64,000 nucleotides of DNA from Novakomyces olei (taxonomy: Eukaryota). Positions within the stretch are counted from its first letter, which is position 1; each line of letters starts with the position of its first letter. Below the pieces are notes generated by a model. The model saw nothing but the letters and a program-made list of their open reading frames with translations. It was not told the DNA's origin and made no database searches. Below are positions 22,378-64,000 of the stretch, piece by piece. The position numbers were made by a program, and so were the translations under genes. The stretch covers positions 1,426,001 to 1,490,000 of the forward strand of contig JADEYG010000004.1 of NCBI GenBank assembly GCA_016906335.1, given 5' to 3'.

Positions 22378-23082
22378 TGTCATGATCCCCGCCTCGCGTG
22401 AACCACGACAGCGAACGACGCCTGAAGTCCTGTAGCGCCAAAGGCGATGACTTCAGGCTAGATAGATCTAAATAGCTCGCGCGAGGTAATGTTGGACATT
22501 ACTCGCGCGAAGCGCGTAAGTGGCCTAGCTCGCGAGCAGGTTGGACCTGGCTCGCGCGAAGCAGGTCCACGTCCATGCCCGCGCGACGTAGGCACGTCGC
22601 GGCGCATGACAGTAGTAGTAGCGATCGCGCATCGCTACGAAGCTAGATAGATCGATCCATAGAGTTCATAGCTCGCCACCGCTTTCCCAATGCGGATGGT
22701 CTGGGACCATCGCATTGAGATCGTGGTGGGATGAGGCTTAGGCCGCGAAGTGGCTAAGCGAGCCGCTAAGCCTCATAGGATAGTCTACATAGTCGCCCAT
22801 GGAGAGAACTCTCTCCACGGGCTTATAATCTCAAAGTTGCTACATAACCTTGTAGCAGGTAAGCTTTAGAGAAGCGCCGTCGCCTTTTCAAGGACAACGT
22901 CCTTTTCCTTTTCCTTAGTTCTTGCGCCGGGCGCAAGTCTACGTTCCCGTTTCTCGGTACTCGCTTCGCGCGGTACCCGATTGAACTTCCTTTGTCGAGC
23001 GGTCTCGCAAAGGACAGTCCGTGTTCGCCTGTAGCGACACGCGAGTTTACACCGCGGTGCTCCCCTCTAAGGGCCACCTACA
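22378..23082 (+). repeat. C 5' LTR
   Basis: TGTCATGATCC...TACA. Confidence 0.95.
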
Positions 23083-23251
23083 CTATTATAAGCCGTGAGC
23101 TCGTCTAAGCTACAGATTTACACGGCGTTGAAAGGTGTCACGCACGGAGGCGTACACAAATTTCGATTTACAAGTTTTATTTCGCACTAAGTTGTTGCGA
23201 CGAAGGGTGCTTTGCTACGGTTTAGCAGCACAAACGAATTATTGAATTACG

Positions 23252-24199
23252 ATGAGTCAAGAGGACTTGAACGCGTTTCTGCAGACGCTGCAGGCGCAGA
23301 TCGCGTCGCTCCAAGAGGAGCGCGTTAAGGACAAATCGGTTATTGAAGGCCTTCGCCAGGAAATGGGATCCCGGGGATCTCGACGATCAGGAGTCAGCGA
23401 AGGGCCAAGCATTTCGAAGCCGGATACATTCAGAGGCGATCGCAGATCGGTGGATACTTTCCTTGCACAGGTTCGCTTATACGTGAGACTCAAGCCACAT
23501 GAGTTTCGCAACGACGAAGCGAAGGTCCTGTTTGCGGTATCTTATCTGCGCGGTGCCGCTTTTGCGTGGTTTGAACCCCACTTGCGCGACCACGATGAAA
23601 GCCTAATTACCAGTGACTTTGCCCTGTTTTGCGACGAGCTCTCCACGACATTTGGGAGCGTCGACCGCATTAGTCAGGCTGAGCGGGAGCTAGCATTGCT
23701 CAAACAGCGAGGATCTGTTGCTGAGTATACTTCGCGTTTTCAGCAGATCACTTCGCACTTGGATTTTAGCGATCACAGTTTACGCTACGAATATTATCAA
23801 GGATTGAAAGATCGAATTAAGGACGAATTATCTCGGTTGGAAAAATCGCGTACATTGTCAGACTTAATTGAGAAGTCTGTACGCGTGGACGAAAGGTTGT
23901 CGGATCGTTACTACGAAAGCGCTAGCCGTACGAACGCCAAGGGCGCTTCAGGCTATAGGGGCGCGACGATCGCGAACAAAGGATACACTCCCATGGAGGT
24001 AGATGCTACCAGTTACGAAAAGAAGAGCATTACCAGCGACGAACGCCAGCGTCGAAAGAAAGAGAACAGATGTTTTACGTGCGGACGCGAAGGTCATCGC
24101 GCACGTGATTGCAAACAGAAGCAACGCAATTATGAGCAACGCATCTCGGTGGTTATGGACAGTATCACGGAACCGGGAAAAGCGAGAGCCCAGGTCTAA
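23252..24199 (+). CDS. C gag
   Basis: KPDTFRGDR, PMEVD, CFTCGREGHRARDC. Confidence 0.93.
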   Translation: MSQEDLNAFLQTLQAQIASLQEERVKDKSVIEGLRQEMGSRGSRRSGVSEGPSISKPDTFRGDRRSVDTFLAQVRLYVRLKPHEFRNDEAKVLFAVSYLRGAAFAWFEPHLRDHDESLITSDFALFCDELSTTFGSVDRISQAERELALLKQRGSVAEYTSRFQQITSHLDFSDHSLRYEYYQGLKDRIKDELSRLEKSRTLSDLIEKSVRVDERLSDRYYESASRTNAKGASGYRGATIANKGYTPMEVDATSYEKKSITSDERQRRKKENRCFTCGREGHRARDCKQKQRNYEQRISVVMDSITEPGKARAQV

Positions 24200-27100: not shown

Positions 27101-27725
27101 GTTTTACGCTTTTTACGGCTACAACCCGAAATGTCGCTTTACGATTTCATCTTCGCGACAATGCCCATCCGCGGATGAACGTATCGAATACCTACGGAAT
27201 CTACATCGCTTATTGAAAGTCGAAATCGAAAAGTCTCTCAGCGACCAGGCGCGCTTTGCAAATGAGCATCGCGTCGACAAAAGTTTTGCTATTGGCGATC
27301 AAGTCTGGCTAGTGCGAAAAAATATTAGCACTACGCGGCCATGCGATAAGCTGGATGCCAAGAAGCTGGGACCGTTTAGGATTATCGCACGCGTTGGTTT
27401 GCGTGCATATCGCTTGGAACTATCGAAGGCAATGCGTATACATCCTGTCTTCCACGCTTCATTGCTAGAGCGACATAACGCAGTGTCGCAGATCGCGCGA
27501 GAACAGATCGCGCCACCACCTCCAGTTATATTGGATGCTAACCCGGAATGGGAAGTCGAGCAAGTTCTAGACTCGCGCATCCGACGCAAGCAACTTCAAT
27601 ATTATGTGCATTGGAAAGGCTACGACGCCTCCGACCGCACGTGGGAGCCTGCGAAACATTTACACAACTGCATGGATTTGGTAAACGAATTCCACCGTGC
27701 ACACCCGAACAAACCTGGTTCTTAA
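24175..27725 (+). CDS. C pol: protease, RT, RNase H, integrase, chromodomain (entered by -1 frameshift; 1-nt indel at ~26620)
   Basis: [38 protein letters not shown], chromodomain. Confidence 0.93.
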
Positions 27726-27952
27726 ATGGGAATGCTAAGCGAGCTCCCTATTCGGGCGACGACCTTCAACTTTCGTCACCCACGCGAAACTAAGACTCAA
27801 CTCTTAAAGTGATTTATTGATTTATTGATTATACCGCGATTATTATTGTTTAAATTATTACGAGAAAATTATACAAAAACATATTCAATTACTTGTCGAA
27901 CAAATAATATGGGACAACGCAAGGAGGAATGGCTGTTGAGTCACGCACACAA

Positions 27953-28408
27953 TTACGGACGAGCGGCACGGAGCGAAAGAATCTCGCGCTCCAACGCACG
28001 GTTGCGGCGCTCGAGGCGAGCGATAGTCGCATCGCGCTGGGCCAGCGCACTCGAAACCGAACCGACGATCGAATTTGTTGACGGAGGACCGTCATCGGCA
28101 ATTACATGCACCTCGAATGGTGCCTGACGTCTTTCCTCCTGCGCTCGCTGTCGCGCGCGACGTCTTTCGCGGCGACGCTGCAGCTCCTCGCGCTCTCTCA
28201 CACGCTGTTCTTCACGCGCGGCAACAAGGCGCTCGTTCTCCTCATTGTCATGAAGAAAACGGCCTCCTTCGCAACGGGTGCGACGTGCCGCGCAGACCAT
28301 ACAGCGACGCACAAACGGTGCAGTGCCGAGAACGAAGCGGCACGGCAAAGAGTTTGCCACGCAATACTCGCAGGGCACGATAGCATCTCTGACATGAACA
28401 AGCGACAT
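27953..28408 (-). CDS. Antisense accessory gene of C: Zn2Cys6-like cluster, Arg/Glu helix, C-terminal coiled coil (151 aa)
   Basis: CEYC-x6-C-x12-CMVC-x6-C; intact ORF; TATATAA upstream at ~28503-28509 (minus). Confidence 0.8.
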   Translation of the reverse strand: MSLVHVRDAIVPCEYCVANSLPCRFVLGTAPFVRRCMVCAARRTRCEGGRFLHDNEENERLVAAREEQRVREREELQRRRERRRARQRAQEERRQAPFEVHVIADDGPPSTNSIVGSVSSALAQRDATIARLERRNRALEREILSLRAARP

Positions 28409-28572
28409 GTTGTTGTTGATCCGGAACGCAGAGCGAAAATTCTTGTTTTGCATCCGCAAATTACTTTATATTACTTAGATAGTTTTATTGCCGAAAGCGC
28501 ACTTATATAGCAGTCTAGTAGCTAACGTGGTTTTCATAGGCGCGGAGACCTCGCCCTAGAAAGGGGGGATAG

Positions 28573-29277
28573 TGTCATGATCCCCGCCTCGCGTGAACCA
28601 CGACAGCGAACGACGCCTGAAGTCCTGTAGCGCCAAGGCGATGACTTCAGGCTAGATAGATCTAAATAGCTCGCGCGAGGTAATGTTGGACATTACTCGC
28701 GCGAAGCGCGTAAGTGGCCTAGCTCGCGAGCAGGTTGGACCTGGCTCGCGCGAAGCAGGTCCACGTCCATGCCCGCGCGACGTAGGCACGTCGCGGCGCA
28801 TGACAGTAGTAGTAGCGATCGCGCATCGCTACGAAGCTAGATAGATCGATCCATAGAGTTCATAGCTCGCCACCGCTTTCCCAATGCGGATGGTCTGGGA
28901 CCATCGCATTGAGATCGTGGTGGGATGAGGCTTAGGCCGCGAAGTGGCTAAGCGAGCCGCTAAGCCTCATAGGATAGTCTACATAGTCGCCCATGGAGAG
29001 AACTCTCTCCACGGGCTTATAATCTCAAAGTTGCTACATAACCTTGTAGCAGGTAAGCTTTAGAGAAGCGCCGTCGCCTTTTCAAGGACAACGTCCTTTT
29101 CCTTTTCCTTAGTTCTTGCGCCGGGCGCAAGTCTACGTTCCCGTTTCTCGGTACTCGCTTCGCGCGGTACCCGATTGAACTTCCTTTGTCGAGCGGTCTC
29201 GCAAAGGACAGTCCGTGTTCGCCTGTAGCGACACGCGAGTTTACACCGCGGTGCTCCCCTCTAAGGGCCACCTTACA
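28573..29277 (+). repeat. C 3' LTR
   Basis: Matches 22378-23082 apart from single-nt indels. Confidence 0.95.
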
Positions 29278-32706: not shown

Positions 32707-35408
32707 ATGGCAGAACCTTTAAGGCCAGAGCCCGGTTCGTTCGAGATAAACGATGGAATTCGACGAATGCTGAACGATAATCCCTTTACACCGCATTTAT
32801 ATTACTTTTACGAAAATCTACGTCGGATTGACAAAGCAGGCTATAGAGACCCTTCAGGACAGTATAATGCTCTTTTGCTCCATGAAAAAGGTAACGATTG
32901 GGTCTCGTCGATTTTTCTTTATGCCTAACATCTATAGACTATTTTAGGCTGGCTGGAATCTTGCTTTGGCAGTTGAGTGCTGTAGCGGAGGATGTTCAAC
33001 CTGCTATAAGTGATTTAGTTATCGACATTGCCTCTGATATCCGGCTTTACTATCATGACATTGCCCCAGTCCTGACGGCTGCATTTAAACATGATAACGA
33101 CTTAGAGATTTGGGAGAAACTGAACGATGTTGTAGCGGAAAGCCAAAGGAAGGTCGAGCGATTAAGGCAAGCTCAAAGCCAAACGAAGGAAGAGCCACCA
33201 AAACAAGCTCCTGGCACGCCACTCAATATTAATTCTATTGCGTACAATTCTAGCGAACGATTAATAGAGGTCGAAGAGCAAATCAAAGCTGAACTTAAAT
33301 TTTTCTATATCAACTTTGAGGTGGAGGATATTTTGTCCACTCAGAAAAAATCGCTCAATAAACTATCGGCGAGAGTGGTTAAAGAGGCAAACCAAGAAAA
33401 CTTACTCTTCAAAAACGGTAAATTGAAGGATTGGCCCAAATCAGCGAAGGAGGCAGCGGTGCTAGATTGGCTCAAGAGTTTTGTAACGCAAATAAGCAAC
33501 ATTTACAAGCGAATTAAAGGCACAGAGGTGCGGCGAACTACAATGTCTGCGGCGAATAAACCTCTCCCTGGAAAGTTCGCACGCAAACCTGACATTTTCT
33601 TCATAAAGCGAAATGCTGATAAACAATGGAACAACGTCTTGGTTGTGGGAGAGCTAAAAAGCAGTCGTAAGGCCGATAGCCCTGCACAAGCATGGGTTGG
33701 CCTTGCAAAGTATATAAAGGAAATATTTCGAGCGCAGGATAACCGTCGATATGTTTTGGGATTTACGCTTTGCGACTCGTCGATGAGGGTGTGGAAATAT
33801 GATCGATGTGGGGCGATAGCATCAAAAGCATTCGACATCAACAAAGCAACAGGCCTGATAGTCTACGTGATGCTGTTTTTCCTTACGATGGGAGAGAAAG
33901 AGCTGGGTTACGATCCGACAATTGTCAGTAGAGAGAAAGATAGATATATCGATATTAAACTAGGGCGGACGCGTGAGCGACTTATAATTGACAAAGTGTT
34001 GAAGACTTCGAGCGGAATTGCGTGCAGAGGCACGACGGTATGGCTGGCGCACCGAGAAGGGGATAAGAGCGCAGTCAGAGTGATCAAAGACTCGTGGCAG
34101 GAGCCGGAGCGAAGGGAAGAAGGGGAGCTGCTTAAGCTAGCGGGTACTCGTGGTGTCGAGAATATTTCGCGATATTATCACCATGAGGTGGTTCACATTG
34201 ATGGCAAGGAAGACGATCTTATGAGCAATGTGCGGAATGGATTAGACATGACCGGAGCTCTAAAAAAGGCAATTCCGGATCTTGGAGCAAGATGGTCGAG
34301 AGGATCGACCGGATCGGGCACTTCAGCACTTGACATGCGGCGAAGCAGTACTCGGTCAGCGAAATCTCCATTATGGAATATAGAGGAGAATGCGGAGGAG
34401 AGGTCCGGAGAGTCGTCGCCAGCAAAGCAGATTGATTCTTTGGATGCGAAAATCAAAAACCGAGTCCATCGACGAGTCGTTGTGTTGGACTACGGGAAGC
34501 CATTGTACAAGGCAAGTTCACACATAGAGCTACTGAAAGGGATAATGGGATGTCTTGAGGGCCACCGGTCGCTTGTGAAGAATGATATTCTGCACCGGGA
34601 CATTTCGATCGGGAACTTGATGATGAATGAGGGGTCTGAAAATCCAGGGTCTCGGCGGGCATTTCTTATTGATCTTGAGTTTGCGATCAGGATCAGCCAA
34701 GCTGGTCTGTCAGGCGCGATGGAGAGAACAGGAACGAGGCCGTTTATGGCGATACCTTTACTAGACGGAAAAGATCATACCATGATGCACGACATTGAGT
34801 CGCACTTTTGGGTGGCTTACTGGATTTTGACTCACTATTTCCAAAATGGACAGCCTATTAATCAGAATTCTCCGTATGATGATTGGAACTATGCCAGTAT
34901 GTCAAAGGTCTCGGCGTATAAATCAAAAATCGTTGAGAATCCCGATATTTTTATGCGCGAAATGTCGGAAAATTTCACTAATGACCATAAGCCTTTGATG
35001 GGATGCATGGAAAAGCTTCGCATTGCATTGTTCATGAAAGATTCAAGAGGCGTACGTATCGAACAAGGTGAAGAATTGTATGACAAAATTCTCAATATAT
35101 TGAGCAGCGAAGTGGAGCGGCTGGAAAAGCTGCAACGAAAGGGGGTCCAAGGAGGCGGTGAACTCCAGGGAGGCCAGGTCAATCAGGTCAGCCAGGGAGG
35201 CCAGGAGGCAGGGAAGCCAGAAGGGCCACGGAGGTCACTGAGGTTACGAGATCCATGGGGACAGAGAGGCCACGAAGCCTATGGCAGCTATAAATTCCAG
35301 AGAGAATATGAAAATCGTAGAGACCATGGGAATCAGGGTGGTCAGGAGGACGAAGAAATTCATGAAGGCCAGGGAGTCCCGAAGAAAAAGGCAAGAAGGG
35401 TCAAGTAG
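32707..35408 (+). CDS. Fungal-type protein kinase (FunK1 / Pkinase_fungal); intron 32891-32937
   Basis: GELK, IKDSW, HRDISIGN, LIDLEFA, RTGTRPFMA, HDIES. GTAACG..CCTAAC..TAG intron restores the frame. Confidence 0.9.
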
Positions 35409-38527: not shown

Positions 38528-39318
38528 ACTGCAGTTATCTTACCATCGTGTCTTTTGAGCGAGTAGGCCGCTCACTACGAAACTCTGTAGTAATTTTGGC
38601 CATAATCCAAACAGACCTTCATTCAACCATCAATAGCCATGATAATCATATGCAATGCCCTAGAAAATGTCGCATTCATCTTCTGAGAACCTTACATCTA
38701 TTATTCCTCACTAGCCATGACGAACTCGCAATAGCTCAAACTTTTGCTTCTCAGTCCAAATCATCATCCATTTGAATTTAATTGTCCAATGAATAGATCA
38801 TAGCCCAGCAAGTCGTGATGCCGCCGCCGAGGTTTCAGTCGATCATTTTATTTTGAAGATAGCAATGAGTCATGATTAATCTACTGGCTCTCATTTGACA
38901 CTTCACGCCTGCTATAAACTGCTTTCACAAATATAGTTTAACCAACAAGATTGCATCGGCCAGAGGGATGCCGACGGCGCCCTCATAGTGGGTCAAAATA
39001 AGCCTTTGTGCGACCGAGCTGATAGTACAGTTTTTGTGTTCTGTGAGGTGAAAGGAAGGAGAGATGTATGATAGACTATCTCAGAAAGCAACCGGCTGAA
39101 ATTGCAAACCCAAAGCTATATGTTCTGCTCTAGTCACATAATCTGGTGTTTCCGTGCGTATGTTATCGTAAATAAGATGAAACGCTGTGACAATAAATTC
39201 CGTCATATTTTGAATGCTCTAATTGTGATATTAAAACAAATGCAGCGTCTGCCACTGCTCACTTTGATATGATTGATTGCCATTTACTGGTAGAGCCTAC
39301 AGTGGTCTGTTACAGACC

Positions 39319-40167
39319 ATGGCAAGGTTAATGGATTACACAACATGTGCCGAAAGCTTGCAGCTGCTGCCTTTGCTTACTATTGTTGATTCTTCTGGCG
39401 GAGCCCTTGAAAAGATCCCTTTTGCGTTCATCGAGCGTGCTGGATCGCCTGGTGTGAAGACAGTGCAGTATCTAGTACGCACACTATACAGCATTCTTTT
39501 GATTGATGAGGGATCAGTTGTGCTAGAATGTAATGGTTTTGCGTGCGAATTGTCTGACCTTACACGACCTGCTAGATACACGTTAGTACGACCTACTTCA
39601 GATTCGCTGCGCTTTCGACCGGGACCTCAAGGCAAGTCTCGATTTAAGACGCTTCCATCGGATGGAACGGGTTCGCAATCTACGTATAGCAGATCGTCGC
39701 GTAGCTCTGCACGGCAGCAAAATTTTAGGTTAGCTGCAATCGGCCGTGACAATTCTCGATGCTTGTTGAGCGGACTTCAGAGCCTGGATGTGCTTGAAGC
39801 TTGCCATATCGTTCCGTACAGTCTCGGCCAGGAATTTCTTGATGAGATAGTTGAAGCCAACGACTCTGATGGACTGGACATCGGTCTGTATAGCCTTGTG
39901 AACTCTCTTGTACTTCGGAAAGATCTACATCGCAGCTTCGACTGTTATCTTTTTGGTATATGGTATGAAAACGGGCATTATTACGTTCATTCTTTTGAAT
40001 CGACCATGTTTTATGAGTTCCATGGTATGGAGATTACCTGGCCAGACTTCATTCCGGACACTCGCAAACCAAGCCCACTTCTGCTGAATTGGCATTATTC
40101 TCAGTGTTTGATGGCCCGATTTAGGGGATTTAAGGTCAGCATACCGCTACCAGAATGTGAACTTTGA
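39319..40167 (+). CDS. HNH endonuclease (HNH_2-type) domain protein
   Basis: RDNSRCLLSG...EACHIVP...NSLVLRKDLHRSFD...PSPLLLNWHY. Confidence 0.85.
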   Translation: MARLMDYTTCAESLQLLPLLTIVDSSGGALEKIPFAFIERAGSPGVKTVQYLVRTLYSILLIDEGSVVLECNGFACELSDLTRPARYTLVRPTSDSLRFRPGPQGKSRFKTLPSDGTGSQSTYSRSSRSSARQQNFRLAAIGRDNSRCLLSGLQSLDVLEACHIVPYSLGQEFLDEIVEANDSDGLDIGLYSLVNSLVLRKDLHRSFDCYLFGIWYENGHYYVHSFESTMFYEFHGMEITWPDFIPDTRKPSPLLLNWHYSQCLMARFRGFKVSIPLPECEL

Positions 40168-47879: not shown

Positions 47880-48933
47880 CCGGTTGTATACAGCACTTCC
47901 ACAAGTGAGCAGAATGCAGTCAGTATCTTCTGTTGAAATATTTACTCCCAGGGAGTAAAGTTCGTAGCGTTTTTGAGCCTGTGTTAAACAAGCGCGCTTA
48001 ATGGCTTTTTATCTACAGTACCCTTACTTTGCCCTTTCCGACCAAGTCGACCCAGCCAAAACTCGCCCGTGGTCGAGATTGGGTTCAAAAGAAATACTAT
48101 ACATTCGGTAAGGATTACCAAATTTGACCGCGGGCAAGATTGTGACGTTACACATTAATATCTTGATGTTCTGTGAACCCTGGCACGGATGTCGAAATTC
48201 GTCGATACACCCCTCTTCAATTATACGCTGATCATAATAAAATCATCGAGCTTACTAGCGTTTTGCAAAGCAACTTCTAGTCTCTCCGGAATTAGCAGTA
48301 CATGCCAATAAAGAAGGACTGGTCGGATCTGAGACCGAAAATGTCAACATTCAAAGTCAAATTTAAATCTATGACCATTATAATCATCAATGCAATGTAC
48401 TACGAGGTAAAACGTAAAACAGTTTCTTAAATAAGACGTTAAAGCGACAATCGTCCGTCGGCAGTGGTGAAGTTTGTTGCCTAACATATACTTTATCTTG
48501 TATAAAATAATGTATGATGACATATGTTGAGAGGTTGACTCTATATAACTTATATTTAACTCATTATTTGAAATAATCACTGTCTTTACATGAATAATTC
48601 TGTCTCTACTTACTGAAATCTCCTCTAATTTCTACATTCTGTCTTTACCAGATTTATTGAATATATATATCCCTGACAGCGCCTCTGAGCCTTTAGGGAC
48701 CCTTTATCATTCTTTCTACAGTCAGATAGTTAATATCAACCGTTCGAACTTCAAGGATAATTTTAATAATTTAACACAAACTAATGGTCTCTAATATATA
48801 TTTAAGTAGCACATTAATCTCACATACTATCTTTCCATAATTAACATCTGATATACAATACTCCTCCAAAACTCCTTTCACGTTGACTATTGACGGCCTC
48901 TACTATCCGCCGGAGTTCCATGCGCCCTGGCGA

Positions 48934-49761
48934 ATGGCAGACGAAGACCAAAGTCAAGATTGGTACAAGCAAGTAGGATATGCGATTAGCTCAGAGGTAT
49001 GGATAGGACAGGGTGTCGCTTATATTGCGACTTCTCAACATGTCCCTTTTGTCTCTATTCCTCTTGAGTTTGTAACATCGGGCTCAAATCCTGTCAACAG
49101 TGTTGCATATTTGAACCGCGTTCTTGCCGGAATCATATCCAATTTACCAAGCAGTAAAATTTCAATGACTTTGAATGGCAGTCTTGTGGCGCCTGACGAC
49201 GCTATTTCTGCTGGCATGTATATTCTACAAGAGCCGCAACATGAATTCATAAAATTTCGGCCGGGACCACAGGGCAAATCTAGATCAAAATTGTTCCACG
49301 ACACCGATGGCTCATCTACGGTTAGCAGATCGTCTAGATCATCTAGTCATCAGTCTGCTTTTCGTGAGCAGCTTTTCCTTCGTGATGGAATGTGTATTGT
49401 AACTGGTGCTGATGGTCGCGACGACTTGATAGCAGCTCACATCATCCCGTTCAGTCTTGGGCAGCGTTTCTTGGACGAAATAACCGGCGGTCCCCTTTTA
49501 ATAACGCAATTCAATGAACGCAACGGAATTGTTCTAGACAGGCGTATTCACCACTTGTATGACAGATACAAGCTCGGATTTTTGGTAGCTGGTGACGACC
49601 GCATAATAATTCATTCTTTCGGGGACGAAGCTATGCAATATCATGGCCAACTTGCATTAATAAGATATCCTTGTAAAATATCTCGCAGGCCTGACCCTCG
49701 ACTTTTAAATTGGCATTACGATCAATGTCTTATGGCCCGATTTCGTGGATTTCATATATGA
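48934..49761 (+). CDS. HNH endonuclease (HNH_2-type) domain protein, paralog of 39319-40167
   Basis: RDGMCIVTG...AAHIIPF...NGIVLDRRIHHLYD...PDPRLLNWHY. Confidence 0.85.
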   Translation: MADEDQSQDWYKQVGYAISSEVWIGQGVAYIATSQHVPFVSIPLEFVTSGSNPVNSVAYLNRVLAGIISNLPSSKISMTLNGSLVAPDDAISAGMYILQEPQHEFIKFRPGPQGKSRSKLFHDTDGSSTVSRSSRSSSHQSAFREQLFLRDGMCIVTGADGRDDLIAAHIIPFSLGQRFLDEITGGPLLITQFNERNGIVLDRRIHHLYDRYKLGFLVAGDDRIIIHSFGDEAMQYHGQLALIRYPCKISRRPDPRLLNWHYDQCLMARFRGFHI

Positions 49762-50525: not shown

Positions 50526-51077
50526 TTACTCCCAGGGATATTCCTCTGTGTATTCGTCCTTGTTCAAAATTTCGGCATTTTCATGGAGAAAAGTAGTGAT
50601 GGCTCTGTTTAGTGCGGTCAGAGTCATGGGCTCAGCGCATTGTAGAGAAAAGTGATCGGTATGTTCGTGTAATATGACTAGATTAGGAGGTAAAGGCGTA
50701 CCCTCCTTTATAACAAAGACTTTTACGTCTTTCCCTCGAAAGTTCCTCACGACTTCTTGAAAAATGACTGACCTTGGATCCCGAAGTGAGCAGCCATTTG
50801 GTTTCACAAAGTTGGGTCCTTCTGCCGGCAATACCTTTTTATTCACAGTGATGAGATCGTAGCTTTTTCTCCCCGCTGCTATTTGCTTTTCATAATCACG
50901 AAGCCTAACATTGAGCCCACTCTGTACACGCGCAAGATCCTGGGGTACTCTGTCTTTGTATTTTCCAATAAGAGGCTTGCCCGCCAAATATGACCTTGAA
51001 AATACTGGCCTTTGGAAACCAATTCGACTTGATGAGCCGCTACACCGGGTTGCGGGGCGCCAAAGACACTCGATCAT
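50526..51077 (-). CDS. Tse2-like ADP-ribosyltransferase-fold toxin domain protein
   Basis: PNGCSLR, EGTPLP..LVILHEHTDHFSLQ, LNRAIT.FL resemble fungal ADPRTs_Tse2-domain proteins (recognised from memory). Confidence 0.7.
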   Translation of the reverse strand: MIECLWRPATRCSGSSSRIGFQRPVFSRSYLAGKPLIGKYKDRVPQDLARVQSGLNVRLRDYEKQIAAGRKSYDLITVNKKVLPAEGPNFVKPNGCSLRDPRSVIFQEVVRNFRGKDVKVFVIKEGTPLPPNLVILHEHTDHFSLQCAEPMTLTALNRAITTFLHENAEILNKDEYTEEYPWE

Positions 51078-51299
51078 CTTCACAAAATAGCTGCAATATT
51101 CTGTGAAAATAATCGTTCACATATTTATTAAGATGAATCTCACTGCCCTGTATAATAATTATTCGACAAAAATTATTTTATGTTAATCTAAAGAGGCAAA
51201 ACTCTATTGATACATATATGTGATTCTTATATATGCAAAGATCAATAGGATTAAATTAATTAGGGCTAAGAAGCATTATACTTGTATATATTGTCTCCG

Positions 51300-52997: not shown

Positions 52998-53664
52998 TCA
53001 GATTTCTTCAGCAACCTCGGCTTCGCGCTCTGTTAGAGAGTTCTTGTGAGATATAGCCTTATCATCGTCCGTCATGTTCGCTTCTTGTATCACGTGAACG
53101 GGAACAATAACGTCAGATTCCTTAAAATAGTTCGTCTGGGTCGTTTTCCACATTGTCATTGTGTACATCATGATTATTCCGATGGCGCTGAGTATGAAAT
53201 ACGCGATAACCTCACGGCGATAAGAAAGCAGAGTCGAATCAATTCCAAAGGAAACACACTCGCCCGCGGCAATTCCGGCACGTAAAATACCAGCGTACCG
53301 AGCGAGTCGCTTAGGCTCATTTGTAAAAGTGCTAATAATCCACTGGCACATGATCTGATAGGAAAATTAGTAAGAATGCGTTGGAAACGCTCTATGTTTT
53401 ACCTGCCAGCAAGCATATACAATTCCGAAAAGAATGTATGCAGAGAAGGCCAAACCGAAATCGGATTTGTTTGTCCAATCAACAGCAGGTCCCTCAGCGT
53501 GCCGATCATGCGGGCTGACGTTTATCCAAACACATTGCAAAACGTAGCCAGCAATAGCGGGGATGGCAACATAAGTTACGCCAATGTACCCTCGTGTTTT
53601 GCGCTTATACTTTTCATTGTCGACAATCACAAAAGTGAGAAGTGAGGCTGGAATTTGTATCACC
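52998..53664 (-). pseudogene. UNC-93-like MFS transporter, 3' part, interrupted by repeat R1
   Basis: LARYAGILR...GECVSFGIDS; multi-TM; short intron ~53359-53401. Confidence 0.65.
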
Positions 53665-55232
53665 CTAGATATATTCAAGACGGAATTATGGCGAAATTCC
53701 ATTTTTATGTAATGTGATTCTTATTATGTATAATTCTAGTCAGGGTTTTCGCTTTTCCTTTACGCCATAATTCCATTTCGAAAAATAATTAATGTATGAG
53801 GGGGGGGTCATGCCAATTTCCTTAGCATTCCCGCGAATTATGGCGTAATTCTAATAAGAATGGTAGGAGAAACGTGGAGGCAGGGTTTTTTAGGGAGAAT
53901 TTTCCGACTAAATTCCAAATTATAATATGGGAAATTGCGCGGGAATGCTAAGGAAATTGGCATAAACGGGGGTAAGAACGACGTAAGAGCAAAAATAGTT
54001 TCCGCCTTAATTCCAAAACATTGGCAAACCATATTGCGGCGAGGGTAGGGTTGCTGAATTTATAAAATAATTATACAAGATGGTCTACACATATTATAGC
54101 TATCTGATAATATAATAAAAATATTATAAAGAGAGCCCCATAGTAATAAAGTATAATAAGAAAAACGTGAGAAAAATATGAAAAATTAAGAGTGTGTAGT
54201 CCATGTGTAGAGGTGACAAAACGTCGAAAGAACAAGTGTTTTTACAAAAAGTGTATGGTTGGTTAGAGGGGAGCAGTAGGAGTGGAAATAAATATTTGTT
54301 TACAAGATTGGAATGGAAGTTATGGAGATATAAGGGTTTAAAGATTTATAAAAAGCTCATGACGGCGCAGGATGCATTTTATGTGGCATTATAGTAATGT
54401 ATAGTAGAATAATTTATTGTAAAGTAATGTATGTATAATAATGTATAGTATAATAATTTATTGTAAAGTAATGTATGTATAATAATGTATAGTATAATAA
54501 TGTATAGTATAATAATGTATGGTATTATAATGTATTGTAAAGTAATGTAATATATGGAGGAATAATGTATAGAGGAATAATGTATGTATAATAATGTATG
54601 GTATAATAATGTATTGTAAAGTATGTATAATAATGTATGGTATAATAATATATGGTAGAATAATGTATTGTAAAGTTATTGTAAAGTAATGTATGTATAA
54701 TAATGTATGGAGGAATAATGTATGTATAATAATGTGTGGTATAATAATATATGGTAAAATAATGTATTGTAAAGTAATGTATGTATAATAATGTATGGTA
54801 TAATAATATATGGTATTATAATGTATGGTATAATAACATATGGTATAATAATATATGGTATTATAATGTATGGTATAAGAATGTATGGTAATTTAATGTA
54901 TAGGAATAATGTATGTATAATAATGTATGGTATAATAATGTATGGAGGAATAATGTATGGATGAATAATGTATGGATGAATAATGTATAGAGGAATAATG
55001 TATGGTAAATTAATGTATGGGGATTAATGTATGGAGGAATAATGTATAGGGATAATGTATGGTGTTAATATATAGTATTAATGTATGGGGGCATAATGTA
55101 TGAGATTTGTTCAGTTAGGGTTAGGGTTAATTATTGGGATAATGTGTGGGGTATTATAATGTATGAGGAAGTTGTTTTATTAGGGTTAGGGTTATTTATC
55201 ATGGAGTGGAGTAGAGAAATTGGTTGAGATTG
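53665..55232 (-). mobile_element. Repeat element R copy 1 (hairpin-CTAG end, inverted repeats, AT-rich minisatellite); possibly a non-autonomous Helitron-like element
   Basis: Same CTAGATATATTCAAGAC... boundary at 53665, 56089, 63431; interrupted at 55233 by an A-type LTR. Confidence 0.65.
54390..55100. repeat. TATAATAATGTATGG-type minisatellite
   Basis: Direct observation; the plus strand is almost C-free. Confidence 0.92.
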
Positions 55233-55421
55233 TGTCATGATCCTCGCCTTGGCGAGTCCCTGACAACCGCGTTGGGAAGCGAGGGGCGACGCCTGTAGTC
55301 GGACTTGGGATGTCCGCGCGTCGCGAGCTTCGCCAACGCGGCCCAAGACCAGTCGGCGCGTAATGCGATGGTCTTGGGACGTAGAAGTTGTCTTAGTGTG
55401 CATGTAGGTACGCGCACTAAG
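55233..55421 (+). repeat. 5' part of an A-family LTR, interrupted by D2
   Basis: Near reverse complement of 9769-9957. Confidence 0.9.
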
Positions 55422-55824
55422 TGTTATGGTTGTAGAAGGCGAAAGCCTAAAGGAGAACCCAATTGCCGGATTTCACGCCGGCTCTGGGACTATGAGAAAA
55501 TTAAGAGATAGAACTGGGTTTAAAAGATTGGGTCTCCCCAAAGTTCGATTACACGTAGCGAGAAAAGTAGAAGCAGGACCTCTATTTATATCCTCGCTAC
55601 GTAGAATATTCTAGAAACACTAACTACTTAAACGATTAAACAAACTAACAAGTAAAAGCAGTCAGAATAATAATAGTCAATAAATAATAAATAATAAATA
55701 AATAAATATTAAATAAATATTAAATATTAAATAAAGACAACAAACAAATAATAAAATAGCGCTTCAATAGCGTCGGTGCTATCGAAGACGCAATAACACT
55801 ATATAAATAAATTAAATCATAACA
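55422..55824 (-). repeat. 3' LTR of element D2
   Basis: Inverted termini TGTTATG...CATAACA; PPT gggaggggagag upstream on the minus strand. Confidence 0.82.
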
Positions 55825-56088
55825 CTACTCTCCCCTCCCGAGGCGTAACACCTGTAAGCCTGAATAAATAAACTTCTTTTTCGCGTCGTAGTAAGCAGGA
55901 AGAGTGGCTCGATAAACTTCACTCGCTTCCTGGTGCTCGTTCTCAACTTGAAGTTCCAAATCTGTTCCCTTTGCATTCTCAGCATCCCACCCGGCTAGAC
56001 GCTTGAGACGCGAATGGGTGTATGCAAACGAGTACCCAGTGATGATAGAATTCTCGAGGGTCATTACAGCATGTAACGTCGCCGGTTC
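55825..56088 (-). pseudogene. C-terminal part of a second JmjC-like cargo gene (D2), interrupted by R2
   Basis: EPATLHAVMTLENSIITGYSFA...RLAGWDA...RGE* aligns with D1 PPGTLHGVIAITDSALMGYNFA...RLIEWDA...RGE*. Confidence 0.78.
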
Positions 56089-58136
56089 CTAGATATATTC
56101 AAGACGGAATTATGGCGAAATTCCATTTTTATGTAATGTGATTCTTATTATGTATAATTCTAGTCAGGGTTTTCGCTTTTCCTTTACGCCATAATTCCAT
56201 TTCGAAAAATAATTAATGTATGAGGGGGGGGTCATGCCAATTTCCTTAGCATTCCCGCGAATTATGGCGTAATTCTAATAAGAATGGTAGGAGAAACGTG
56301 GAGGCAGGGTTTTTTAGGGAGAATTTTCCGACTAAATTCCAAATTATAATATGGGAAATTGCGCGGGAATGCTAAGGAAATTGGCATAAACGGGGGTAAG
56401 AACGACGTAAGAGCAAAAATAGTTTCCGCCTTAATTCCAAAACATTGGCAAACGATATTGCGGCGAGGGTAGGGTTGCTGAATTTATAAAATATAATTAT
56501 TATACAAGATGGTCTACACATATTATAGCTATCTGATAATATAATAAAAATATTATAGAGAGAGCCCCATAGTAATAAAGTATAATAAGAAAAACGTCAG
56601 AAAAATAAGAAAAATTAAGAGTGTGTAGTCCATGTGTAGAGGTGACAAAACGTCGAATGAACAAGTGTTTTTACAAAAAGTGTATGGTTGGATAGAGGGG
56701 TGCAGTAGGAGTGTAAATATATACTTGTTTACAAGATTGGATTAGTAATTATGGAGATATATGGGTTTAAAGATTTATAAAAAGCTCATGACGGCGCAGG
56801 ATGCATTTTATGTGGCATTATAATAATGTATAGTAGAATAATTTATTGTAAAGCAATGTATGTATAATAATGTATAGTATAATAATGTATGGTAATTTAA
56901 TGTATAGGAATAATGTATGTATAATAATGTATGGTATAATAATGTATGGTATAATAATATATGGTAGAATAATGTATTGTAAAGTTATTGTAAAGTAATG
57001 TATGTATAATAATGTATGGAGGAATAATGTATGGAGGAATAATGTATGTATAATAATGTGTGGTATAATAATATATGGTAAAATAATGTATTGTAAAGTG
57101 AATAATGTATGTATAATAATGTATGGTATAATAATGTATTGTAAAGTAAAGTATGTATAATAATGTATGGTAAATAATATATGGTAGAATAATGTATTGT
57201 AAAGTTATTGTAAAGTAATGTATGTATAATAATATATGGTAGAATCATATGGTATAATAATATATGGCATTATAATGTATGGTATAATAATATATGGTGG
57301 AATAATGTATGGAGGAATAATGTATGTATAATAATGTATGGTATAATAATATATGGGGGATTAATGTATGGGAATAATGTATGGGGAATTAATGTATGGG
57401 GGATTAATGTATGGAGAATAATGTGTATGGGGGAATAATGTATGGGGGAATAATGTACGGTGATATTTATTTAGGGTTAGGGTTATTTATGATCGAATGG
57501 AGTAGAGAATTATATTGAGATTGTTGGATATGAAAGGGAGGGAGAGAGTTGGAGTTGAGATAGGAAGTAAAGGGAAATAGAAAATGGGAATAGAGTAATG
57601 TAGAAGTTGCCAAAAAAATGTTTGATAAAGGACAGTTATTGAAAGGAAGATTGTTTTAATATTATTTAGTATTTTATAATATTTGGTTAAAGTTTAGAAA
57701 GGATCAAATAAAAATGATGATGTAAAAGTTTTAAAAGGGCGGAAAATGTGAATAATAATAGATTGAAGGGGTGTGAGGGGATGTGGAAAAGTGATGGGAG
57801 ATGAAGAAAGAAAGATTTTGGAAGAGTTGAGGGAAGCAGATGGAAGTTGATGGAGTTAGGAGGTAGGGCTATGGTTAAAGTGAGAAGAATTAGGGTTATT
57901 TAGTTCTAAGTGTATGAATGTTAGGGTTAGTAATTTATTATAAGAGAATGATAGCATGTTGGGGGAAGAAGTTTATAAAATAGAGAATGGTAATGGGGGT
58001 TAGGGTTATGGAGGAATAATGTTTGGTAAAATGATGTATGGGATTAATGTATGGGGGAATAATGTATGTAGGAATATATATGGTATAAATATAAGTATTT
58101 ATTAAGCATGGAGACTAATATAAATATATTCAAAAA
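56089..58136 (-). mobile_element. Repeat element R copy 2 (minisatellite ~56820-57460), followed by a diverged R terminus at 58137-58192
   Basis: First ~750 bp nearly identical to R1. Confidence 0.65.
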
Positions 58137-58192
58137 ATATATATTCAAGACGAAGCTATTGCGAAATTTCATTTATGTGTAATGTAATTCTT

Positions 58193-58543
58193 TGTTAGGG
58201 GGTGACCCTGGGTGATGGACTAGCCCGATATCGCGCGGGCGGAGGCAGGAAGATGGGACGAACCAGAGTACTGTCGGTGACTATTGCAACAAGGAGACTG
58301 AGGAGCCTACAGTCGCGAAGTATAGGCGTAACCCAAATTGATTTCACACAAGGGACAAGTAGAAGACAAGCCTCTATTTATAAGCTTGACCCTTGTGGTT
58401 AAACTATGAGAAAACTATTCTAGAACTATCTAAGCCACATTAAACAAATAACTAAAAGAAATTAAAGTAATAAACTGGAAAGTTGAATAAGACTCGTCGC
58501 TATATCAACCGTTCATAGCGGCCTAAATAGCGACTCCCTAACA
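58193..58543 (-). repeat. D1 3' LTR
   Basis: 8-bp inverted termini; shares motifs with the D2 LTR (cctctatttata, tattctagaa, cccaa.ttg...atttcac). Confidence 0.85.
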
Positions 58544-59533
58544 TTACTCCCCTCTCAAAAGTCGAAGTCCTTTGTTGAAATCAAAAGAAAAAGAAGAGAA
58601 AGAAGACTTAAAAACCTTTTCGTAATGCCGAAGACAAACACGATGTTCTTCAACCGCATCGCGTGTCAATTCAGCCTTACCCTTTGCGAAGTTTGCGTCC
58701 CACTCGATAAGTCTCGTAATGTCCTTGTCGAGTACGGCAAAGTTGTATCCCATCAGCGCAGAGTCGGTGATTGCGATAACACCGTGGAGAGTGCCTGGTG
58801 GAAACGTGATTGACCTATTCTCCGAGAGAATATAATACTTCAGGCCGCGCAAGTAGATGATGGCATCGCGCAATGCAAACTGATGATTTTGTCGATGCCT
58901 TGGTCCAAACCAGGAAAGATTCTCTGGTGTGGGCGGCCATGTTAGAATCATTTTTGTTCCGAAAACACCGTAGACAACTGTCCCGAACATGATGGGATCA
59001 ATGTGCACGTCTGTTACAGTCCCTGCTGGTGTAAGGACCGACGTCCAGTTTGTCGTGTTATCCGCATGCTCGTCAAGAGGACGTAGCTTTTTGGCGGAGC
59101 CCAATCGGCTAGGTTTTAAATTGTACACCGCGTATGGGTTTGCGCCCCGATCCATCCACGCTGCAAGAAATGAGATAACACTAGTGGCCTTGAGAACGAT
59201 TTGGTTCGATGCGTTGTCAATAATCTGACATGGTGAACGGGACGTTAGATCCTTGAGGAGATCTTCACACTCGATGTCGACCGTATCGTAGGCTGCTTCA
59301 TGGAGAGCTGTTTGGCGAGTGCTTAGCGTGCGCAAACACGTCAGCACACTTTCGTAATTTGTCGATTTTCCCCCGCAACGATAAAACTCCTTGATGCACG
59401 CAGACATTCTTTTGTCATGGACTGCAATCTGATGCCGTTTCCTGTCATATTGTTCGTAGAACCTTGTTCCACAATCTAAACATTCTAGCGGTCCTTGGTT
59501 TCTGGGGCGTCTGGTGCTTTTTTCTCGAGGCAT
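58544..59533 (-). CDS. C2H2 zinc finger + JmjC domain protein (KDM2/JHDM1/Epe1-like histone-demethylase fold), intact and intronless
   Basis: CLDC-x12-H-x4-H; VTDVHIDP (HxD), GTKMILTWPPT..N, FPPGTLHGV...DSALMGYNF (distal His). Confidence 0.85.
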   Translation of the reverse strand: MPREKSTRRPRNQGPLECLDCGTRFYEQYDRKRHQIAVHDKRMSACIKEFYRCGGKSTNYESVLTCLRTLSTRQTALHEAAYDTVDIECEDLLKDLTSRSPCQIIDNASNQIVLKATSVISFLAAWMDRGANPYAVYNLKPSRLGSAKKLRPLDEHADNTTNWTSVLTPAGTVTDVHIDPIMFGTVVYGVFGTKMILTWPPTPENLSWFGPRHRQNHQFALRDAIIYLRGLKYYILSENRSITFPPGTLHGVIAITDSALMGYNFAVLDKDITRLIEWDANFAKGKAELTRDAVEEHRVCLRHYEKVFKSSFSSFSFDFNKGLRLLRGE

Positions 59534-60211
59534 CGCTAAGTTCACTGCTGAGGGCTGGTAGAGTTGCGTTTGCTGAAAATATTTTCAGGCCAGTTAATTT
59601 ATATAGAACGGTTATCAATCTTAAGTAATCGTCCGTATATAATAAGTCGTACCGGTAATATATATATAACGGTATATATAATAATATAAGTAACCAATAT
59701 AATAACAACACATATAATAATATTATGTGTGGATAATAAGGTCGCTAAGTTGTCCGCTCTGGGCGTCATATTTAGCGTCACAATAAATAATCTTTTGCGA
59801 TAATAAACGGTCGCTAAGTTGCCCGCTCTGGGCGCCATATTTAGCGTCGTATGAAATAAATAATAAAGTGCGATAATAGCGTGTATACGTGATACATAGC
59901 ACAAATATTGCAGAGCATTACTCCCCCTTCAATAATAGGTGGGTTCCTTAATAGAAAAATAATAAATAAATAGAATCAATAATTAGTTCAGAAAATAGTT
60001 ATTTGGGCAAGATAGATTCGAATAGATAATAAAGAATCAATATAAAAATCAAGCTGTATGAGGTTGAGGCATACAATAACAAGGGTACCGGAGTTGAATC
60101 AGTGTCCCATTTCGTAGTAAAACAATAAAAATGTTGGTGTAATAGAAGTTTTTATCCCTGAATTAAAATCAATAAGTGATAAAAAGCATAATTAGAGAAT
60201 AATTGGTAGTT

Positions 60212-63200
60212 TCAAAGGTTGCGATTGTGATATTCGCGTAAAGCGTCTTGTGCATTAACCAAGTTTTCGTATGGTTCCCAGGTACGGTCTTCTGGTCCAT
60301 AGTTTTTCCAATGGACGTAATATTGGCGGTTCTTTCCACGTCCACGATGACTGACGATATGATCAACTTCATATTCTTCTGTGTCTTTGAGTATATCGGG
60401 CACAATTTGTTCTGTCGATTCACGATTAAATCGGTCAGGTTTGTGTCTTGAGAGCAGTGTTTCATGAAAAACATTGTGGATTTTAATATGATCTGGTAAT
60501 TCAATGCGATAAGCGGCTGGGCCAACTGTAGCTATAATGGGAAAAGGTCCGAGAAAAACATGATCGAGCTTTGGGCTTGGTCTTGATGATAAAATGTGTT
60601 CTCTTCGTATCCAAACTAAGTCGCCAATGGTGAATTTGGGTGCTTCCAGTCGTTTGCGATCATAAAAATCTTTCATTCTTTGAACTGATTGTTTGAGTAT
60701 AGATTGTGTAGAATTAAAGTGGTTTTTCCAATCCATAGCAAGTTTGTTAGCAGATTCATTCGGCGTCTGCAGTGGTGTAAAAGCGCTTCTTGGGTGATAA
60801 CCGTAGCAAGTAAAAAATGGGCTTTGTTTGGTGCTCGCGCTTATAGTATTGTTGTAAGCGAATTCGGCAAAAGGGAGCAAATCAGACCAATTGTCTTGTT
60901 GGTAATTAGAATAACAGCGTATGTACTGTTCCAAAGTTTGATTTAGTCGTTCCGTTGGCCATCTGTTTGGGGATGGTGGCTGGTTGACTTTCGTAGTGTA
61001 ACGCCAAGTTGTTGCGTTAGTGAATTCCAAAATTTGCTAACAAATCGTGTATCGCGATCCGATACGATGTCTTCTGGGATTCCATGTAGGCGGATAATTT
61101 CCTTGATAAAAATGTGTGTGAGATCGAAAGATGTAATTGTTTCGACTGTTGGTATAAAGTGAGCCATCTTTGAAAATCGGTCTATCACAACAAAAATTGA
61201 ATCAAAGGATTAGAAATAGGCAGTTTAACAATAAAGTCAATAGAAATAGACTTCCAAGGGCGGTCGGGAACGTAGAGTGGTACTAGCAGTCCATAAGGGC
61301 GATGTCTGGGGACCTTGTTTCGGGTGCAAGTAGTGCAGCCTTGTACGTATTTCTTTACGTCGCGGTGAATTCCCTGCCAAAAGTAATTTCTGGTGACAAG
61401 TTCAATGGTTTTATTGATTCCTAAATGACCAGATAGCGGGTGATCATGACACGCTGCTAGAATCTCTTGTCGATTCTCGGGTGGCACAAATGTTTTGCCT
61501 TCTTCAACGGTGTTTACTGCGATAAACTGCGATTGTTTAAGCAGTGGTTTCAATTGTATCTTTTGATATTCAATATCCGTAGTATCTGCTAAGTCGGAGC
61601 GGCGGCTCAATGCGTCAGCAGGTATGTTTAATTGACCTCTTCGATAAATAATGTTAAAATCGAACTCAGCTAAGATCTCAGCCCATCTGGCTTGTCGTCT
61701 GGTGAGTATTTTCGATGTTGTAAACGTTTGTAGGTTTTGGTGATCACTGTAGATCAGTATAGGATGTGGTGAGCCATGTAAATAATGACGCCATGTGCGT
61801 AAACTCCACACGATACACAAAAGTTCTTTGTCGTAAATGTCGTAATTTAGCTCTGCTGGTAGTAGCTTTCTACTAATGAAGGCGATAGGTCGTTTGTCTT
61901 TGCTTTGTTGTCGTAGACAGGCGCCTAAAGCAAAGTCTGAAGCGTCTGTTTCAATGACACATTGCAAATTGTTATCAATATGATCAAGCATAACATTTTT
62001 TAGAAATGATTTCTTCAAGTCGCTAAAAGCGTCGCTCTGAGCGGCGGTCCAAGCGAATGCGGTTTTTTGCTTGAGTAACTCAGTTATTGGTAATACAATT
62101 TTCGAGAAATTCGGGATAAAGCGGCGATAGTAGTTGCAGAAACCTAAAAGAATTTGCACGTCTTTGACATTCTTTGGCTGTGGCCAGTTTTGTATTGGCT
62201 CTGTTTTCGATTTTGCCATTGACAGTCCATCTTTTGATATGATATATCCTAGAAATTCAACAGTAGCTTTGTGAAATTCACATTTTTCTAGTTTCACATA
62301 TAAAGTGTGTTGTCGTAAGCGATAAAGTACTTCGCGAACATCCTGAAGGTGTTGCTCAAGGGTCTTGCTATATACTAGAATGTCGTCTAGATAAACCAAA
62401 ACTTTGACATCTAATATATCTCGAAATATGTCATTCATTAAATTTTGAAACGTCGCTGGTGCATTTGTAAGTCCAAATGGCATTACGCGATATTCAAATA
62501 ATCCATAGCGAGTACGAAATGCTGTTTTCCATTCGTCTCCTTTCTTAATTCTGATGAGGTTGTATGCACCTCGCAAATCTAGTTTAGTGAAGTAGATGGC
62601 CTGCGCTAACTTATCAATAAGTCCATCAATGCGCGGCAAAGGATAACGGTTCTTCACTGTAACTTTGTTTAAAGCTCTGTAGTCGACACAGAGTCTAAGG
62701 TCACCGTCTTTCTTCGGTGCAAATAGTACAGGTGATGCAGCTGGACTTTAGATTTTCGAATAAATCCTGATTGCAAGTTTTCTTCCAAGTACTTTAGTAG
62801 ATAGTCTTGTTCTTTCGGTGTAGTTCCATAAACTGGTCCGAATGGGATCTTGGCATCTTTCTCTAGTACGATTTCGTGATCGTATGAGCGGTGTGGCGGT
62901 AGTTCCAATTGTTCTTGCTCGCCAAATACATCTTTAAATTCCTGATACTCTTCTGGTATCTTGGTTGCAGTTGAGGTAACTTCTGTAATGTCCAATTCCA
63001 GAACGTCCTCGTTTTTGGCAGATGTAATTATGTTTTCATCGTCTGTTGAATCACTTACTTCCTCAGTGTGAGGTTCAAATTCGGTGTTCATTGATGTTTC
63101 CGTGAAGGTATTACTGGTCGTCTCCCATGCAATAGTACCTTCTTTCCAATTAATTATGGGGTTGTGCTTTCTTAGCCAATCTACTCCCAGTAACATGTTA

Positions 63201-63430
63201 TTTGTTCCGATCTCGGCAACTAAAAATCTTGTATCCGTCTCGTATCCATTGATACTCAGGTTCAAACTGTCGGTTCGCTTAATTGCTTGACGTGAACGTA
63301 TAGTTCTCCCGTCAGCCACGCGTACAGTAATAGGATTCTTTAATGGAGCAGTTTCGATCTTCAACTTATCTGCTAGCTTCCAGTGCATAAAGCTTGAGCT
63401 CGCGCCGGAGTCAACTAAAGCCGTAAAACT
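60212..63430 (-). pseudogene. D1 pol: protease, RT, RNase H, integrase, chromodomain, with frameshifts at ~62745, ~61200, ~60960
   Basis: LVDSGASS (63395-63420), [38 protein letters not shown]...TWEP. Confidence 0.92.
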
Positions 63431-64000
63431 CTAGATATATTCAAGACGGAATTATGGCGAAATTCCATTTTTATGTAATGTGATTCTTATTATGTATAAT
63501 TCTAGTCAGGGTTTTCGCTTTTCCTTTACGCCATAATTCCATTTCGAAAAATAATTAATGTATGAGGGGGGGGGTCATGCCAATTTCCTTAGCATTCCCG
63601 CGAATTATGGCGTAATTCTAATAAGAATGGTAGGAGAAACGTGGAGGCAGGGTTTTTTAGGGAGAATTTTCCGACTAAATTCCAAATTATAATATGGGAA
63701 ATTGCGCGGGAATGCTAAGGAAATTGGCATAAACGGGGGTAAGAACGACGTAAGAGCAAAAATAGTTTCCGCCTTAATTCCAAAACATTGGCCATATTGC
63801 GGCGAGGGTAGGGTTGCTGAATTTATAAAATATAATTATTATACAAGATGGTCTATACATATTCCTGCGCGAATTACGCCGTAATTCGAAATATATGTAT
63901 CGTAGTTTTTATTAGCTATATTTTTTGTTAGGGTGTTCTACGTAGAATTACGGCGTAATTCCAGTTTGAAAATTAATTAATGTATGGGAGGGGGGTCATG
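63431..64000 (-). mobile_element. Repeat element R copy 3 (to ~63860), then a diverged R-like terminal module to the window end
   Basis: Same boundary as R1/R2. 63871-64000 repeats the inverted-repeat and aattaatgtatg..ggggggtcatg layout. Confidence 0.65.

Follow-up and report, generated by a model that had tools for sequence, protein, structure and literature searches.

A candidate second lineage of JmjC-carrying LTR retrotransposons, represented by a probably interrupted 3' end in a chromovirus-rich region of Novakomyces olei

An LTR retrotransposon in the genome of Novakomyces olei, termed D1, appears to contain an ORF with a C2H2 finger and JmjC-type residues between its pol region and its 3' LTR, and a reading of the sequence alone had proposed that a second, diverged element nearby, D2, has the same architecture of JmjC ORF, polypurine tract (PPT) and LTR. 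The locus thus raises the question whether D2 is the end of another JmjC-carrying lineage, and whether such cargo is an old, maintained trait or a one-off capture. The comparisons reported here suggest that D2, which is probably interrupted, is likely to be the 3' end of another JmjC-carrying LTR retrotransposon lineage that has diverged deeply from D1. The positions of the features are summarized in Table 1.

The 64,000-nucleotide stretch of DNA that was analysed (the window) is fungal DNA rich in Ty3/gypsy chromoviruses, and a Pfam scan of 38 of its ORFs returned gag, protease, reverse transcriptase (RT), RNase H, integrase and chromodomain, representing several families. Other ORFs of the window comprise a Tse2-type ADP-ribosyltransferase-like ORF (50526-51116, minus strand; PF18648, E 4e-36), two HNH_2 ORFs (39277-40167 and 48841-49761, plus strand), a fungal-type protein kinase ORF (32895-35408, plus strand; PF17667, E 4.5e-126), all in the part of the window that bears genes, and a sugar transporter, which is 50-54% identical to its best named matches.

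Table 1. Positions and properties of the D1, D2 and repeat A features, and the junctions between PPT and 3' LTR.
Feature	Position	Strand	Description
D2 3' LTR	55422-55824	minus	403 bp, TGTTATG...CATAACA, TATA block TATAAATAGAGG
D2 JmjC-family ORF, 3' end	55825-56088	minus	87 codons plus stop TAG (55825-55827)
D2 polypurine tract	55828-55839	minus	GGGAGGGGAGAG; doubles as the last ORF codons, (G)RGE
D1 3' LTR	58193-58543	minus	351 bp, TGTTAGGG...CCCTAACA
D1 C2H2 and JmjC ORF	58544-59584	minus	346 codons, first Met at 59533, end RGE-TAA
Second PPT-like junction in D1	59916-59930	minus	GAAGGGGGAG-TAA-TG
D1 pol	60212-63430	minus	protease, RT, RNase H, integrase, chromodomain; four overlapping frames
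D1 junction			PPT GAGAGGGGAG, spacer TAA, LTR start TG
D2 junction			PPT GGGAGGGGAGAG, spacer TAG, LTR start TG
G2 junction (JmjC-less)			PPT ...GGGAGGGGGGA, ...GGGGGGA; spacer TAC, LTR start TG
D2 insertion target, G2-family LTR nt 1-189	55233-55421	plus	98.4% identical to 9769-9957 and 15764-15952
Repeat A	53664-55232		other copy of the repeat
Repeat A', cutting the D2 ORF	56088-57524, perhaps to 58192		terminus (C)CTAGATATATTC..., hairpin, minisatellite, two TTAGGG
A-like head fragment	58139-58192		adjoins the outer end of the D1 LTR
Repeat A''	63431-63863		other copy of the repeat; cuts D1 pol at 63430/63431

The D2 ORF fragment, read on the minus strand from 56088 to 55828, encodes EPATLHAVMTLENSIITGYSFAYTHSRLKRLAGWDAENAKGTDLELQVENEHQEASEVYRATLPAYYDAKKKFIYSGLQVLRLGRGE (it starts with EPATLHAVMTLENS and finishes with GLQVLRLGRGE), followed by TAG and then directly by TGTTATGATT. 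The sequence-only reading had described it as a C-terminus homologous to that of D1, with the distal histidine in PATLHAV and with an RGE-stop ending whose stop codon touches the TG of the LTR; the coordinates and the reading of this ending are correct, and the homology was borne out. In the BLASTP comparison with D1 (E 7e-12), 29 of 87 columns were identical (33% identity between the C-termini), and the match covers residues 263-346 of D1, i.e. the last 84 of its 346 residues; a tblastn search of the whole window gave 4e-8. The BLOSUM62 local score of 110 compares with a mean of 28 (sd 4.5) and a maximum of 53 in 1000 shuffles, hence the alignment to D1 is significant. The surviving part comprises the distal iron-binding His and a C-terminal helical tail to RGE; the HxD half of the iron triad falls outside the 87 residues, leaving the distal His alone visible.

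A family profile built from 40 database homologues, with D1 and D2 left out, picked D2 out of the window's 1483 ORF pieces at E 1.6e-7 and placed PATLHAV on the distal-His strand of the family (PgtiHAV), the next conserved Trp also being in the match; no third JmjC piece was found by this profile search among the 1483 pieces, the spacers of G2 and G3 (described below) included. The D2 frame is stop-free in just 0.86% of 20000 shuffles, and the remaining five frames over the same piece contain 3-5 stops each. Because of the homology to D1 and the match to a profile that lacks both sequences, D2 is assigned as a true C-terminal piece of a divergent, predicted C2H2-JmjC family.

The assignment of this family to the JmjC class was made through D1. 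Pfam JmjC models gave no match to D1 or D2 even at E<=10, and the gathering score of PF02373 (JmjC) or PF08007 (JmjC_2) was reached by neither; a word-index search with D1 gave no match, and the first match for D1 in the protein atlas was a cluster named 'JmjC domain-containing protein' (score 0.97). D1 alone matched the PDB marginally (C. elegans KDM7 homologue, E 0.0079, over TDVHID and PPGTLHGV). In an exhaustive HMMER search, 172 cluster representatives passed E<=1e-3 and 27 of them passed <=1e-10, but <=1e-30 was reached by none; the best database homologue is 37% identical, and the named members of the family are Tilletia hypothetical proteins, some of them labelled C2H2-type or JmjC. 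Among 38 homologues scanned, three passed the Pfam JmjC cut-off and one more fell below it, and none of the 38 was found fused to RT or integrase.

In an alignment of 42 sequences, residues H194, D196, G209, W216, N222 and H267 (D1 numbering) are nearly invariant; H194, D196 and H267 correspond to the HxD...H iron-binding triad as aligned to the KDM7 homologue, and T191 and K211 line up with a Thr and a Lys of that enzyme, which we take to be co-substrate residues. The profile of this alignment matched 14 PDB chains, all of them JmjC chains of KDM7, KDM2A, PHF8 or PHF2 (E 1.5e-13 to 9e-6). As aligned, D1 is predicted to have all the residues that bind the metal and the co-substrate. The family of D1 and D2 is a divergent branch of JmjC proteins as judged from sequence, since the Pfam JmjC models mostly stay below threshold.

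The junctions between ORF and LTR are built alike in D1 and D2: both ORFs read through the PPT, both end in L(x)RGE, and in both the stop codon is the 3-nt spacer before the LTR. The D2 LTR has TG...CA termini with short inverted ends and the PPT three bases upstream, and the outer ends of the D1 and D2 LTRs fall at breaks in target homology; for D2 the limits are supported on the outside, because the homology to the LTR of another family (nt 1-189) starts at 55421 going left. No second D2 LTR was found in the 64-kb window, and no D2 gag, pol, 5' LTR, PBS or target-site duplication is visible in it; the D1 LTR is likewise unpaired in the window.

The D2 LTR had been called different from, but related to, that of D1. 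The difference is plain, as the two LTRs are alignable solely in one 55-nt block at the TATA box, with 43 identities and no similarity in reverse orientation (the local score is 40, versus 26.9, sd 3.7, for shuffles, and is matched by one of 200 shuffles); kinship is weakly supported, by this block and by the TGTTA...TAACA termini. The termini are TGTTATGA...TAACA in D2, TGTTAGGG...TAACA in D1 and TGTCATGA...TTACA in the chromovirus G2, and the LTR of the chromovirus G3 also begins with TGTCATGA. These termini, together with an identity of 46-51% between the pol of D1 and those of G2 and G3, place the LTRs in one chromovirus clade.

G2 and G3 are the closest pol relatives of D1 in the window, and no JmjC was found in either. 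G2 is a full-length element (9327-15952, minus strand) whose 631-bp LTRs share 99.8% identity, and the 578-bp stretch from its pol stop to its 3' LTR contains no JmjC remnant. G3 is full-length as well (22372-29273; 708-bp LTRs, 99.6% identical), and its chromodomain stop (27725) is separated from its 3' LTR (28567) by 842 bp; within these lies an antisense ORF (27953-28465, 170 aa) that encodes a Cys-rich motif as well as a stretch rich in Arg and Glu, and has no Pfam family.

In D1, the order on one strand is pol, a 628-bp spacer, the JmjC ORF, PPT and LTR. The pol is broken into frames at 62669-63430, 61185-62747, 60943-61209 and 60212-61036, and the adjacent JmjC ORF of 346 codons is whole, a difference that is not significant with one copy. 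The spacer contains the second PPT-like junction, some 380 bp 5' of the JmjC ATG, so that the JmjC ORF of D1 is bracketed by a duplicated PPT-TAA-TG junction. The exact 11-mer GGGGAGTAATG occurs just twice in the 64 kb, both strands counted, one copy being at the D1 LTR junction (58544-58556, minus strand) and one in the spacer; six other matches have one mismatch each and belong to the minisatellite, and the chance expectation with at most one mismatch is 0.73. A TATA box is located near 59600, and the ATG follows roughly 65 nt downstream of it; the D1 JmjC gene probably has its own promoter. The spacer region also contains a tandem duplication of about 73 bp (59732-59878).

Because the PPT-TAA-TG copy between pol and the JmjC ORF could end a pol element, the module of JmjC ORF, PPT and LTR might be a separate, perhaps non-autonomous LTR family, with the D1 pol chromovirus just nested upstream and with D2 as a second JmjC-only member. 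The occurrence of an exact GGGGAGTAATG twice in 64 kb, the second one 277 bp after the pol stop and followed by TG, agrees with this arrangement, as does the lack of paired LTRs around pol in D1 or D2. We nevertheless consider it unlikely: an LTR that started at 59917 would be left with no more than 384 bp before the ATG, with its sole TATA at about nt 312 and almost no R-U5, and it would begin with TGCTCTGC, whereas G2, G3, D1 and D2 have TGT(C/T)A termini; moreover, the LTR that follows the JmjC ORF agrees with the clade to which the D1 pol belongs, no other copy of the spacer between pol and the JmjC ORF is present in the window, and internal second PPTs are common in retroelements. Since the putative LTR from 59917 is too short before the ATG and has a terminus unlike those of the clade, the reading that we favour is that the cargo belongs to D1 and lies between copies of a duplicated PPT junction, either as a trace of its acquisition or with an internal second PPT.

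The target of D2 differs from the G2 LTR at three of 189 bases, and D2 would have inserted into this G2-family chromovirus LTR at nt 189, in minus orientation. The terminus of repeat A, (C)CTAGATATATTCAAGACGG..., adjoins D2 at 56088, an unrelated host-gene remnant at 53664, and the D1 protease at 63431. From left to right, the visible left junctions are all complete element termini (A against the host gene, nt 1 of the G2 LTR against A, the D2 LTR end against G2, A' against D2, the D1 LTR end against the A-like fragment, and A'' against D1), as a one-sided nest predicts, and we therefore infer that A was inserted into the host gene, G2 into A, D2 into G2, A' into D2, D1 into A', and A'' into D1.

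In this order of events, the mobile repeat A' would have broken D2 at the position matching codon 262 of D1, and D2 is probably interrupted, beyond mere truncation. As D2 lies inside a chromovirus LTR and is cut by a repeat with a defined terminus, its remainder (the N-terminal part of JmjC, with any pol, gag and 5' LTR that the element has) is expected to the right of the nested insertions, past the end of the window. The D2 lineage moved recently, because its target LTR is 98.4% identical to a young G2 element, the LTR pair of which is 99.8% identical.

The host-gene remnant is that of a membrane-protein gene (52998-53663, minus strand), which holds an apparent six-level nest of A, G2 LTR, D2, A', D1 and A'' (53664-64000). 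Repeat A has a hairpin (GGAATT-N7-AATTCC) 13 bases inside its defined end (C)CTAGATATATTC, an inner palindrome of about 45 bp, a 15-bp minisatellite (ATAATGTATGG...), two TTAGGG, and head-like units in tandem; C is nearly absent from its plus strand, the GC skew of which reaches 0.91. The minus-strand end (...CTAG with a subterminal hairpin) recalls Helitron 3' ends, but the flanking bases are G, G and A, and not T.

The divergence of D1 and D2 was estimated for 83 aligned codons of the single D2 copy: pS is 0.754 (saturated) and pN is 0.473, at 46% nucleotide identity over the aligned codons, and the identities at codon positions 1, 2 and 3 are 51, 54 and 34%. RIP was ruled out as the source of this divergence, since neither ORF has a RIP-type dinucleotide bias. 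Neutral decay to such a depth would destroy both frame and similarity, which argues for selection over most of the path between D1 and D2; likewise, protein similarity and an open frame that persist at synonymous saturation argue that the gene was kept under selection. These estimates support the view that the JmjC gene is old and kept, and is not a fresh one-off capture.

Two LTR lineages could have reached the same state independently, by capturing paralogous host JmjC genes at the same position, as might be suspected from the 33% identity of the C-termini and from the wide family of stand-alone homologues, with its 172 representatives at E<=1e-3. D1 and D2 are, however, reciprocal best matches among 157 other family proteins (D2 scores 29 bits to D1 and 17 to the next protein, and the C-terminus of D1 scores 22 to its best outside match), and an identical landing, with L(x)RGE in the PPT and the stop in the 3-nt spacer, would be needed twice, which renders such a double capture very unlikely. 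That D2, a mere fragment in a nest of repeats, is simply a D1-family copy that is old and has decayed, or a host-gene remnant beside a solo LTR by chance, is the least credible explanation, given an open frame at 46% nucleotide identity (0.86% of shuffles), codon positions 1 and 2 conserved over 3, LTRs that are unalignable beyond 55 nt, no RIP signature, and a specific stop-PPT-TG junction.

Outside the window, the nearest relative that was placed on DNA is 37% identical and is located on one metagenome contig of 7.8 kb. Its ORF ends in ...GCAATC TAA AGATAC, with PPT and TG absent; the contig contains no repeats, and no Pfam family was found in the ten ORFs scanned (nine of them downstream), the upstream context being limited to the 203 bp between the gene and the contig end. 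Furthermore, the JmjC Pfam family was found in none of the 120 relatives of the D1 pol that were listed. Because the outside relative lacks PPT and TG and the pol relatives lack JmjC, the architecture of JmjC ORF, PPT and LTR appears so far to be a property of D1 and D2 alone, and not of the protein family at large. The claim that the JmjC cargo is an old, maintained family trait is partly supported: synonymous saturation, conservation and the shared junction design speak for age and retention, and the outside relative, with no PPT or TG, and G2 and G3, with no JmjC, speak against a wider family trait. D2 shifts the JmjC gene of D1 from a possible one-off capture to a candidate for a maintained trait.

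Taken with the nest, the most likely history of D2 is that of an element which, like D1, ended its internal part with a C2H2-JmjC ORF of the KDM2/7 type, reading through the PPT and with the stop in the 3-nt spacer. Such an element would have, or have had, gag-pol, and the common ancestor of D1 and D2 would already have contained the JmjC gene at this position.

The chromodomain of known chromoviruses steers integration into H3K9-methylated chromatin. The cargo may be an Fe(II)/2-oxoglutarate histone lysine demethylase that counters the heterochromatic silencing of the element's own copies: this small KDM2/7-like enzyme, whose finger would bind DNA and whose expression would depend on its own TATA promoter or on a subgenomic RNA, would remove repressive lysine methylation at or near element copies, i.e. 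those that the chromodomain has steered into heterochromatin. The cargo would then oppose silencing much as Epe1 does (PMC6576747). More tentatively, and with less confidence than for the nature of D2 itself, a fungal chromovirus clade may long have carried its own C2H2-JmjC histone demethylase as an anti-silencing factor, over a span beyond synonymous saturation and in at least two lineages; the chromodomain would read heterochromatin and the demethylase would erase the mark on the element's own copies, and the gene, together with its own promoter, would have entered at a duplicated PPT junction. LTR retrotransposons seldom fix extra enzymes, and a JmjC demethylase in two deeply diverged lineages would, if true, represent a transposon-borne chromatin eraser that acts directly against the H3K9me-based silencing of LTR elements in fungi.

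No description of a JmjC gene inside an LTR element was found in full-text literature searches, which is not proof of absence. Among enzymes, D1 is like those of the KDM2/KDM7 group (JHDM1, PHF8, PHF2 and the C. elegans KDM7 homologue) in its profile match, the HxD...H triad, and the aligned Thr and Lys, and D2 is like them in the distal-His strand; unlike these enzymes, D1 is without PHD, CXXC and F-box, and is predicted as a protein of 346 aa with one N-terminal C2H2 finger, encoded inside a retroelement. With respect to position, HIV-1 nef and MMTV sag are accessory ORFs that overlap the 3' PPT or U3. Like these, the ORFs of D1 and D2 would be accessory ORFs that follow pol (or env), and they code through the polypurine tract; nef and sag run into U3, whereas the ORFs of D1 and D2 stop exactly in the spacer before the LTR, in a fungal host and with a predicted enzyme as cargo.

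Captured additional ORFs have been described for LTR retrotransposons of bdelloid rotifers (PMC5408684), and in these, as in D1 and D2, extra ORFs are common to diverged LTR lineages; cargo and host are different. Closer in function are Ty3/gypsy elements of orchids, for which an AlkB-type m6A demethylase domain is described as acquired and as acting on RNA (PMC9289625). What these would share with D1 and D2 is a Ty3/gypsy element with a fixed extra function, predicted in D1 and D2, of an Fe/2-oxoglutarate dioxygenase; in contrast to the orchid domain, the cargo of D1 and D2 is a separate ORF of the JmjC class located at the PPT of a fungal chromovirus. For the putative role of the cargo, the working model is Epe1 of Schizosaccharomyces pombe, a JmjC anti-silencing factor that acts against H3K9me heterochromatin (PMC6576747); Epe1 is, unlike the cargo of D1 and D2, encoded by a host gene and recruited by HP1/Swi6, and the likeness is at the level of the JmjC class.
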